Made by a program: the position numbers and the translations under genes. Shown here piece by piece: positions 47,046 through 49,515 of a stretch of 64,000 nucleotides of DNA. This DNA is from Escherichia coli. Lineage in GTDB: Bacteria; Pseudomonadota; Gammaproteobacteria; Enterobacterales; Enterobacteriaceae. A model generated the notes under the pieces. The model searched no databases. It saw only the letters and a list, made by a program, of their open reading frames with translations, and was not told the DNA's origin. Position 1 is the stretch's first letter, and every line of letters begins with the position of its first letter. The stretch lies in the NCBI RefSeq assembly GCF_003334305.1, contig NZ_QOWS01000004.1; one strand, given 5' to 3'.

Positions 47046-47906
<861 letters not shown>

Positions 47907-48044
47907 TCAATATTCCTTTTCAACTGACTCAAAATGGAGAAATACACTCCGCCGCCTTATGACGGGCAGTCTGACAAGGGTAAACAATAAAGCATAATTT
48001 TGCCAAATAGATCACAGATTTCTCATCTGAATCACCTTGCTTTT

Positions 48045-48071
48045 GGCGAAAAAATCCCCGCAGAGCGGGGC
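48045..48071 (-). terminator. Terminator-like hairpin (distal copy) flanking the BIME
   Basis: Minus strand reads CCCCGCTCTGCGGGG followed by ATTTTTTCGCC. Confidence 0.5.
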
Positions 48072-48100
48072 TCAGACAGATATCAATGTGCGCTTTGTCA

Positions 48101-48200
48101 TGCCGGATGCGGCGTGAACGCCTTATCCGGCCTACAAAAACCTGCAAATTCAATATATTGCAGGATACGTGTAGGCCTGATAAGCGTAGCGCATCAGGCA
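48101..48200. repeat. BIME: two REP palindromic units in inverted orientation
   Basis: TGCCGGATGCGGCGTGAACGCCTTATCCGGCCTAC (48101-48135) and GTAGGCCTGATAAGCGTAGCGCATCAGGCA (48171-48200), matching the REP consensus, with a small central hairpin. Confidence 0.85.
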
Positions 48201-48211
48201 ATTTTGCTTTT

Positions 48212-48240
48212 GGCGAAAAAAAGACCCGCAGAGCGGGCCT
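48212..48240 (-). terminator. Rho-independent terminator of fbaA
   Basis: Minus strand reads GCCCGCTCTGCGGGT followed by CTTTTTTT, about 25 nt after the fbaA stop. Confidence 0.75.
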
Positions 48241-48263: not shown

Positions 48264-49343
48264 TTACAGAACGTCGATCGCGTTCAGTTCCTGGAATGCT
48301 TTTTCCAGACGAGCGATCATCGAAGTCTGACCGGCACGCAGCCATACGCGCGGATCGTAGTATTTCTTGTTCGGCTGATCTTCGCCTTTCGGGTTACCCA
48401 GCTGACCCTGCAGATAAGCTTCGTTCGCTTTGTAGTAGTTCAGAACGCCTTCCCAGGTTGCCCATTGGGTATCGGTATCGATGTTCATTTTCACTACGCC
48501 GTAGCTTACGGAGTCTTTGATTTCCTGAGCAGTAGAACCGGAACCACCGTGGAATACGAAGTTCAGGCTGTTGTGCGGCAGGTTGTGTTTCTTAGAAACA
48601 TATTCCTGAGAATCACGCAGGATGGTCGGAGTCAGAACCACGTTACCCGGCTTGTAAACACCGTGTACGTTACCGAAGGACGCAGCGATGGTGAAACGCG
48701 GGCTGATTTTGCTCAGCTCGGTGTATGCGTAATCAACGTCTTCCGGCTGGGTGTACAGTGCAGAAGCGTCCATGTGGCTGTTGTCCACGCCGTCTTCTTC
48801 ACCACCGGTGCAACCCAGTTCGATTTCCAGAGTCATGCCGATTTTGGACATACGCTCCAGGTATTTAGAGCAGATTTCGATGTTCTCTTGCAGAGATTCT
48901 TCAGACAGGTCGATCATGTGAGAAGAGAACAGCGGCTTACCGGTAGCTGCGAAGTGTTTTTCACCCGCGTCCAGCAGACCGTCGATCCACGGCAGCAGTT
49001 TCTTCGCGCAGTGGTCAGTGTGCAGGATAACCGGAACACCATAATGTTCAGCCATCTGGTGAACGTGATGCGCACCAGAGATCGCGCCCAGGATAGCAGC
49101 ACCCTGCGGAACGTCAGATTTCACGCCTTTACCAGCGATAAAGGAAGCACCACCGTTGGAGAACTGAACGATAACCGGCGCTTTAACTTTAGCAGCAGTT
49201 TCCAGTACGGCGTTGATGGAGTCAGTACCGACGCAGTTTACTGCTGGCAGTGCGAAGTTGTTTTCTTTTGCTACCTGGAAAACTTTCTGTACGTCATCAC
49301 CAGTGATTACGCCAGGTTTTACGAAATCAAAAATCTTAGACAT
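48264..49343 (-). CDS. fbaA: Fructose-bisphosphate aldolase class II
   Basis: ORF 48264..49427; start MSKIFDFVKPG at 49343 gives 359 aa. Confidence 0.93.
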   Translation of the reverse strand: MSKIFDFVKPGVITGDDVQKVFQVAKENNFALPAVNCVGTDSINAVLETAAKVKAPVIVQFSNGGASFIAGKGVKSDVPQGAAILGAISGAHHVHQMAEHYGVPVILHTDHCAKKLLPWIDGLLDAGEKHFAATGKPLFSSHMIDLSEESLQENIEICSKYLERMSKIGMTLEIELGCTGGEEDGVDNSHMDASALYTQPEDVDYAYTELSKISPRFTIAASFGNVHGVYKPGNVVLTPTILRDSQEYVSKKHNLPHNSLNFVFHGGSGSTAQEIKDSVSYGVVKMNIDTDTQWATWEGVLNYYKANEAYLQGQLGNPKGEDQPNKKYYDPRVWLRAGQTSMIARLEKAFQELNAIDVL

Positions 49344-49354
49344 GTCTCTTGTCC

Positions 49355-49515
49355 TGTATCGTCGGGCCTTATACTCATCATACTTCAAGTTGCATGTGCT
49401 GCGTCTGCGTTCGCTCACCCCAGTCACTTACTTATGTAAGCTCCTGGGGATTCACTCTCTTGTCGCCTTCCTGCAACTCGAATTATTTAGAGTATGAAAA
49501 AATGCGTGCTCTAAA
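49355..49515. repeat. ERIC/IRU enterobacterial intergenic repeat
   Basis: Minus-strand core GTGAATCCCCAGGAGCTTACATAAGTAAGTGACTGGGGTGAGCG (plus 49412-49455) matches the ERIC consensus; flanking arms extend the element. Outer ends are approximate. Confidence 0.75.

Follow-up and report, generated by a model that had tools for sequence, protein, structure and literature searches.

Few repeats of enterobacterial genomes are as abundant as REPs and BIMEs, and the classical argument against transposition of BIMEs is the absence of flanking duplications. In the spacer between mscS and fbaA of Escherichia coli, a BIME lies between two near-identical sequences that both resemble the terminator of fbaA, which raises the question of how this terminator came to be present on both sides of the element. 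An earlier note on this DNA had proposed that the BIME was inserted with a duplication of the fbaA terminator resembling a target-site duplication. The mode of spread of REPs was still called unknown in 2021 (PMC8266576), and the mechanism is treated as open by Nunvar 2010, Bertels & Rainey 2011, Ton-Hoang 2012 and later literature. The locus was analyzed in a 64,000-nt stretch of E. coli DNA (contig NZ_QOWS01000004.1), referred to here as the window; coordinates are those of the window unless another sequence is named.

Two terminator copies in the fbaA-mscS spacer

Both genes bordering the spacer are encoded on the minus strand and take their names from RefSeq annotation of identical DNA. 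The fbaA coding sequence (48264-49343; C-terminus ...ELNAIDVL*) owns the intrinsic terminator that is the proposed target of the insertion, while mscS (47046-47906; an open reading frame of 286 aa) lies on the far side of the feature, downstream in terms of transcription. The mscS-fbaA spacer of MG1655 measures 357 bp, as in the window, which therefore carries the K-12-type allele.

A repeat search of the window revealed an exact 18-nt repeat, TTGCTTTTGGCGAAAAAA, at 48037-48054 and 48204-48221, which runs on as AAAAAA(T/AG)(C/A)CCCGCAGAGCGGG(G/C)CT at 48049-48072 and 48217-48240. When the mscS-proximal copy T' (36 nt; 48037-48072) is aligned with the fbaA-proximal copy T (37 nt; 48204-48240), 33 of 37 columns match, with three mismatches and one gap, bearing out the near-identical direct repeats described in the earlier note. 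The similarity was not found to extend past these 36/37-nt limits, including toward the 3' end of fbaA (upstream flanks, shuffle p = 0.2-0.8).

On the minus strand each copy had been read as a hairpin followed by a U-run, and both were indeed called by a terminator scan, which found five terminator-like sites in the region versus 0.9 expected. In copy T, a stem of nine pairs (stem-loop 48221-48241) precedes a U7 tract, and the RNA folds with −14.3 kcal/mol, the same value as in the short allele described below. In copy T', a stem of six pairs (stem-loop 48056-48070) is followed by a run of six U (48049-48054) and the tail CGCCAAAAGCAA, with a folding energy of −11.8 kcal/mol. With a GC-rich stem-loop and a U-run 3' of a gene, both T and T' are predicted intrinsic (Rho-independent) terminators. 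A terminator-like 40-mer from this sequence occurs once or twice, rarely three times, per genome (9,070 places in 5,425 genomes); the surplus over one copy equals the number of genomes carrying the BIME, indicating that the terminator sequence is not a dispersed repeat.

In some E. coli strains, the mscS-proximal hairpin (48056-48070) has a perfect stem of 7 bp. In the ancestral copy (48224-48238), the plus-strand mismatch at that stem corresponds to a G-U pair in the transcript. Elsewhere in the region, the fbaA-pgk spacer (49375-49497, minus strand) gives a sub-threshold Rfam match to the Vibrio antisense RNA AS5 (40.2 bits versus a gathering score of 96). This match covers the full length of the model and is probably a conserved leader or spacer sequence.

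Empty and filled alleles

The earlier note had called for a comparison with strains lacking the BIME. A 601-bp query spanning the region was covered in full in 3,726 of the 5,426 complete E. coli genomes analyzed; the remaining genomes matched it as two pieces spanning 434 bp. This short allele, present in ∼1,700 of the 5,426 genomes, is exactly 167 bp shorter, and a junction probe gave the same split between filled and empty alleles (3,668 filled genomes). Two short alleles that were inspected read ...ATCACC-TTGCTTTTGGCGAAAAAAAGACCCGCAGAGCGGGCCT-TGAGATAAG..., with a single terminator identical to T and no REP at all. Among the empty genomes is that of S88, a phylogroup B2 strain. The state that would speak against the proposal, REP-less strains with both hairpins, was not seen among the sampled alleles, all 12 short-allele rows spanning 434 bp and not 471. 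A synthetic query representing a junction of two terminators without BIME gave no match, even for parts of it that do exist, presumably as a result of low-complexity masking.

To establish polarity, one genome per species was scanned with the MscS protein, yielding 80 loci, 57 of which have fbaA upstream. In ∼50 species of Citrobacter, Klebsiella, Kluyvera, Enterobacter, Kosakonia and other genera, the spacer measures ∼155-215 bp, mostly 183-191 bp, and holds one homologous terminator. The Citrobacter sequence TTGAAATGGCAATAAAAAAGGCCCGC aligns position by position with E. coli TTGCTTTTGGCGAAAAAAAGACCCGC, so the tail of the duplicated segment is ancestral target sequence and not part of the element. 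Two divergent lineages labeled 'E. coli' or Escherichia (L005, L006) are likewise empty, and the sample contains no filled allele outside Escherichia. Other genera share a single-terminator spacer of equal length, which makes the empty state the ancestral one and the insertion together with the duplication derived. The empty alleles and the single-terminator spacers of the outgroups thus lend support to the proposal of an insertion with duplication of the fbaA terminator.

Filled alleles also occur in other members of the genus. In E. whittamii (L008), the T' hairpin has decayed (GGCCGCCAGGATAGAGGGGA; upstream of position 2501 of L008), while its U-run and tail are kept. Escherichia sp. E1V33 (L007:1997-2370) carries an array terminator-BIME-terminator-BIME-terminator, that is 2.2 copies of a 169-nt unit with 96% identity, which probably arose when the duplicated terminators underwent unequal exchange. 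Judged from these sequences, in which the BIME is present and diverged, the insertion is old within the genus Escherichia, and its repeats have supported unequal exchange later on. The empty alleles of E. coli may be either primary or precise revertants; in either case, the origin of the repeat is unaffected.

The inserted element is a BIME-1

Between T' and T lie 131 bp, consisting of a 29-nt segment, a Y-type REP, a 35-nt linker, an inverted Z-type REP and the tetranucleotide AATT, all except the linker assigned to the plus strand. The 29-nt segment CAGACAGATATCAATGTGCGCTTTGTCAT (48073-48101) is the left outer motif of the element, in a diverged form of the family left end TCAGATTGTTGACAAAGTGCGCTTTGTTCAT. 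It is followed by the Y REP (48102-48135), a palindromic unit with a CTAC end, identified by an exact pattern match and its inverted-repeat arms. The linker L (48136-48170) is unique in the window and conserved across loci. The second REP (48171-48199) starts with GTAG and is inverted with respect to the Y REP, as is evident from its repeat arms and a multi-locus alignment; its label as Z2 follows REP consensus sequences and the subtype is uncertain, Ton-Hoang et al. calling the second REP of BIME-1 z1. AATT (48200-48203) begins the right outer motif, which in the family goes on as TTGCGTTTGTCATCAGTCTCA; here it joins copy T and the last 12 nt are absent. The two inverted REPs of the earlier note thus stand, while the inserted unit is larger than that pair: it is a whole BIME-1 with conserved outer motifs.

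The 29-nt segment as an exact sequence is single copy in the genome. Its interpretation as flanking sequence carried along from a donor locus was rejected, as it aligns with the left ends of other BIME-1 copies. Where the fbaA-mscS copy is absent from a genome, the insert finds its best matches in other copies of BIME-1, which cover its positions 9-131 or 12-131 with ∼90% identity, and an alignment of the copies at fbaA-mscS, satP-mog, fepA-entD and tsx-yajD displays conserved outer motifs on both sides. The ends of the family read 5'-(T)CAGATTGTTGACAAAGTGCGCTTTGTTCAT-[Y REP] ... [Z REP]-GGCAGTTTTGCGTTTGTCATCAGTCTC(A)-3', the two motifs forming imperfect terminal inverted repeats, and BIME-1 can be delimited as a discrete unit of ∼152 bp, 5'-(T)CAGATTGTTGAC...GTCATCAGTCTC(A)-3'. 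The left end of the E. whittamii orthologue is still close to this consensus. Compared with the family, the insert at fbaA-mscS is complete on its left side and 12 nt short on its right side, where it passes into copy T at TTGCTTTTG as against the element's own TTGCGTTTG. The two share the microhomology TTGC(G/T)TTTG, and the 9-mer of the target is already present in empty alleles.

In its parts, the element is a textbook BIME-1 (RIP/RIB) of E. coli at an ordinary and known locus. It has the composition, order and orientation of the published family (PMC3333891; PMC2817692): two REPs of different type in inverted orientation, their GTAG and CTAC ends facing a long conserved L linker with an IHF-like site, in a single extragenic unit at the 3' end of a transcription unit, here downstream of fbaA, belonging to a multicopy family with matches at no fewer than 39-40 places per genome. 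The element itself does not differ from published BIME-1; in the literature consulted, the conserved pair of outer motifs was not found to be treated as element ends, nor was a flanking duplication of a whole target stem-loop found.

Within the linker, ATTCAATATATTG (48148-48160) agrees at 12 of 13 positions with the IHF consensus WATCAANNNNTTR; the resemblance is one of sequence. The stretch 48136-48178 also matches the Rfam family ES036/CssrF sRNA (47.3 bits versus a gathering score of 37.6), a family that seems to model the repeated L motif. The Y REP gives naRNA4 matches below threshold. Folded as a whole, the REP doublet can form a single long hairpin (−49.9 kcal/mol, z = −6.3).

REPs are usually considered chromosomal. 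Isolated REP-like matches of 31-36 nt were noted on several E. coli plasmids (for example NZ_CP044147.1, 7450-7484), and a scan of viral contigs for the L motif returned 19 matches, all in unrelated sequence.

Hairpin duplications at other BIME-1 loci

Further BIME-1 loci were collected by scanning metagenome contigs with a pattern made up of the end of the Y REP and the linker, which gave 120 loci, followed by a profile search. Once strands and samples had been merged, 34 distinct loci remained, 16 of them with both termini. For each locus, 55 nt of left flank were locally aligned with 55 nt of right flank, and 1,122 pairings of left and right flanks from different loci were used as control (mean score 12.0, 99th percentile 19, maximum 28). 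Flanking direct repeats scoring above the 99th percentile were found at 9 of the 34 loci, where ∼0.3 are expected, and at 7 of the 16 loci with both termini. The score at fbaA-mscS was 40.

At seven canonical loci, the repeat is 19-30 nt long, lies 0-3 nt from the element ends and folds as a stem-loop with −10 to −20 kcal/mol. Including fbaA-mscS, the duplications measure 19, 20, ∼22, 23, 28, 30 and 36/37 nt and track the stem-loop of the target; the 28-nt hairpin repeat belongs to the BIME-1 copy on the agp-yccJ side (L181). The loops are the same, not complementary, in both copies (e.g., AGCAAT, GTT, TTCAC/TTCTC, AGA), so that the repeats are direct and not a by-product of palindromy. The hairpins differ between loci, as is apparent from low cross-locus scores, and hence belong to the target and not to the element. 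The element ends, on the other hand, agree within 1-2 nt at independent sites, which argues for a defined mobile intermediate. Relative to these loci, fbaA-mscS is an atypical case: there the duplication also takes in the U-tract and a 12-nt tail, while elsewhere the stem-loop alone is duplicated.

Empty alleles with one stem-loop could be matched to filled alleles with two at five independent loci, fbaA-mscS included. At satP-mog, K-12 is empty (...TTGAGATCCCCCCGCTCGGGGGGATTTTTTT...) and has one hairpin, and ExPEC XM carries hairpin-BIME-1-hairpin. Empty alleles with a single stem-loop were likewise verified at rutG-ymdF (1,734 filled genomes; size difference 174 bp), at yfeX-pbp4b (1,401 filled genomes; difference 182 bp, that is 152 + 30 bp) and at ysgA-metE (difference 171 bp), the last being filled in no E. 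coli genome and only in a related species. These five loci thus possess two properties of transposable elements, direct repeats of the target on either side and a single copy at empty sites; the length of the duplication, however, is not fixed in the way a transposase would set it.

A flanking repeat was not detected in 9 of the 16 elements with both ends, some of which are very near the consensus and several of which have a hairpin abutting one end only. In such elements the spare copy may have decayed, or there may be a second route of insertion; decay of a second copy is visible in E. whittamii and likewise at L124/L159, another BIME-1 locus. Overall, loci with repeats have higher profile scores (Mann-Whitney p = 0.004), but among elements with both ends the presence of a repeat showed no correlation with likeness to the consensus (rho = 0.07). 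Relative to replication, and judged by K-12 gene strands, the element's top strand had the same orientation at 6 of 8 loci, a bias without statistical significance.

Several loci showed peculiarities of their own. The katE-chbG spacer was considered as an empty-site case and rejected: strains without BIME-1 carry a different, unrelated spacer with its own hairpin (L116 versus L230), the mark of an allele replacement and not of an insertion or deletion. At ysgA-metE (L119), the stems of the two copies, GGC...GCC and GGT...ACC, differ by a compensatory change from C-G to T-A; here, as at fbaA-mscS, pairing is preserved or strengthened by the differences between the hairpin copies. The yfeX-pbp4b region of F5656C1 and KY 1497 also holds a copy of IS1B or IS200C. 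In L145, the palindrome GGTCAGATTGAAATCTGACC abuts the right end of BIME-1 and is made of BIME-1 terminal sequences (TCAGATTG and CAATCTGA-like); it may be the remnant of a second element that has lost its interior, or an end-joining product. In L194, which is the L117 locus, BIME-1 is broken off by unrelated sequence right after the GTAG of the second REP, suggesting an insertion or rearrangement at GTAG.

A model for BIME-1 insertion

The reading that we favor, and consider likely to be correct, is that a BIME-1 was inserted at the fbaA terminator and that the duplicated terminator is the footprint of this insertion, brought about by staggered breaks at the feet of the hairpin and subsequent fill-in. 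The insertion is read wholly from comparison of alleles; the staggered breaks, and the involvement of an enzyme, are what we infer beyond that comparison. GC-rich stem-loops, mostly terminators, would be the general target of BIME-1. Each target strand would be broken once, the two breaks lying at opposite stem feet, much as when the base of an extruded hairpin or cruciform is cut; joining of the element between them would be followed by fill-in or repair synthesis, which would copy the whole stem-loop on both sides. The duplicated target indeed coincides with the stem-loop to within ∼1-2 nt at each foot, and its length follows the target and not a fixed stagger.

Applied to fbaA-mscS, a BIME-1 would have landed on the intrinsic terminator of fbaA within the genus Escherichia, and a 36/37-bp piece of target comprising stem-loop, U-tract and 12-nt tail would have been duplicated, leaving one terminator on each side and the ancestral copy next to fbaA. 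The left junction is canonical, with the element beginning 2 nt past the stem foot. The right junction is not; here the second joining may have taken place at the 9-nt microhomology, or a later conversion from the other copy may have altered it. Such an event would have lengthened the duplication by ∼18-20 nt and shortened the element by 12 nt; the stretch replaced and the missing element end measure 12 nt each. The repeats would then have permitted unequal recombination, leading either to expansion of the unit, as in the E1V33 array, or to exact restoration of the empty site.

Candidates for the enzyme are TnpA_REP (RAYT) and a structure-specific host nuclease. TnpA_REP, whose gene lies outside the window, binds REPs in their folded form and cleaves single strands of DNA at C|T (PMC3333891), but its relatives, the HUH/Y1 transposases of the IS200/IS605 type, do not duplicate their target (PMC2817692), so that the known chemistry gives no reason to expect a duplication. 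Each 3' end of the element (...GTC|TCA and ...ATC|TGA) has a C|T dinucleotide 2-3 nt inward, yet no consistent scheme could be built from these sites; neither was C|T consistently present at the target junctions, nor was a tetra- or pentanucleotide common to the junctions found. Because the relatives make no duplication and C|T is inconsistent at the target, TnpA_REP is put forward as a candidate and not as a conclusion.

The main rival to this model needs no transposase. During replication, the polymerase would copy the terminator, jump to a BIME-1 elsewhere and return upstream at a microhomology, thereby copying the terminator a second time. The right junction at fbaA-mscS fits such template switching, as it falls on the match between element motif and target that exists in empty alleles, and the target past the hairpin (TGAGAT) resembles the left end of the element (TCAGAT). 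Duplication lengths varying from 19 to 37 nt also suit a process that no enzyme fixes. Random switching, however, should leave ragged ends, whereas the element ends at the seven other loci are the same within 1-2 nt; junctions at those loci show at most 1-3 nt of microhomology, and microhomology alone does not explain why the duplication has its limits at the base of the stem. We therefore regard template switching as rather unlikely.

The remaining explanations differ in where they place the origin of the repeat. If the filled state were ancestral, the single-terminator alleles would be deletions between direct repeats that already existed and not the trace of an insertion. Recombination of the 36/37-nt repeats would yield exactly the short allele, exchange of this kind does occur, as the tandem array of E1V33 illustrates, and the BIME is old, being filled and diverged in E. 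whittamii and E1V33. Yet all of the ∼50 species of other genera are short, with a single terminator homologous to T, and the pattern of one hairpin in empty and two in filled alleles recurs at four other loci with unrelated hairpins. Secondary loss in some lineages of E. coli is possible but would still not account for the origin of the repeat, and ancestry of the filled state seems very improbable to us. About as improbable is the notion that the terminator was tandemly duplicated by slippage and that a BIME-1 was later inserted exactly between the copies. In its favor, short segments that contain a hairpin are known to duplicate in tandem. Against it, alleles combining two terminators with the lack of a BIME were not encountered, the sampled short alleles spanning 434 bp, the extra copies of the 40-mer match the number of filled genomes with at most three per genome, and the same coincidence would be needed at several independent loci. 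Chance similarity or an assembly artefact, finally, can practically be dismissed, given an identical structure in more than 3,600 complete genomes and a flank score far above the mismatched-locus control.

Relation to known mobile elements

Inserted at a terminator as proposed here, BIME-1 shares traits with several known systems. Like REPINs mobilized by RAYTs, it is a REP doublet forming a long hairpin, present or absent between strains, with the defined ends of a non-autonomous mobile unit. Published RAYT models invoke an excised single-stranded circle or rolling-circle addition (PMC3333891); these models, like IS200/IS605, predict no target duplication (PMC2817692), unlike the variable, hairpin-sized duplication seen here. 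The absence of a duplication and the specific short target of IS200/IS605 'peel and paste', the transposition model commonly applied to REPs mobilized by RAYTs, are accordingly not what BIME-1 sites display. With MITEs and DDE insertion sequences, BIME-1 has in common terminal inverted repeats, flanking direct repeats of the target and one-copy empty sites; their duplications, however, are short, fixed and set by the enzyme at 2-14 bp, whereas those of BIME-1 are 19-37 bp and set by the secondary structure of the target. Variable duplications, and at fbaA-mscS one precise junction combined with a truncated one at microhomology, recall target-primed insertion of LINEs and SINEs, but BIME-1 gives no sign of an RNA intermediate or reverse transcriptase, and the similarity is one of resemblance, not of membership.

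In Pseudomonas fluorescens SBW25, REPINs occur in ordered tandem clusters in which flanking sequence is repeated along with the REPIN (Bertels & Rainey, PMC3116915). The E1V33 array is of the same kind; its repeated flank, however, is traceable to a duplication of the target and subsequent unequal exchange, a link absent from PMC3116915. Touzain et al. 2010 go no further than to state that ∼10% of small variable segments have repeats on their flanks. Duplication of a target hairpin or terminator by BIMEs or REPINs is not described in Nunvar 2010, Bertels & Rainey 2011, Ton-Hoang 2012, Di Nocera 2013, Corneloup 2021, Park et al. 2021, Touzain 2010, Delihas 2011 or a 2024 mobilome preprint; the footprint may have been described earlier, in the BIME papers of the 1990s. 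That BIME-1 can be present or absent between strains has been reported, and Bachellier et al. 1997 (Genetics 145:551) reportedly spoke of 'excisions of a whole BIME-1'. Should the older literature already contain the footprint, the present result would be a clean genome-scale confirmation of it.

Implications for the spread of BIMEs

A footprint in which a whole stem-loop is duplicated, with precise element ends and empty sites that can be checked, bears on the open mechanism by which BIMEs spread. It predicts that terminator hairpins are preferred as targets, and it predicts the geometry of the breaks. More tentatively, and as a possibility on which we would not yet rely, BIME-1 and perhaps REPINs generally may integrate in a structure-directed manner into any GC-rich stem-loop, typically a terminator, that is broken at the opposite feet of the hairpin and wholly duplicated. 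If so, the length of a target-site duplication would be set by the secondary structure of the target and not by the enzyme, and the position of BIME-1 at the 3' ends of transcription units would be explained. Each such insertion would, as far as the sequences tell, turn one terminator into two with an IHF-site-like element between them. The spare terminator would be free to drift or to compensate, and the direct repeats made by the insertion would permit exact reversion or tandem growth.
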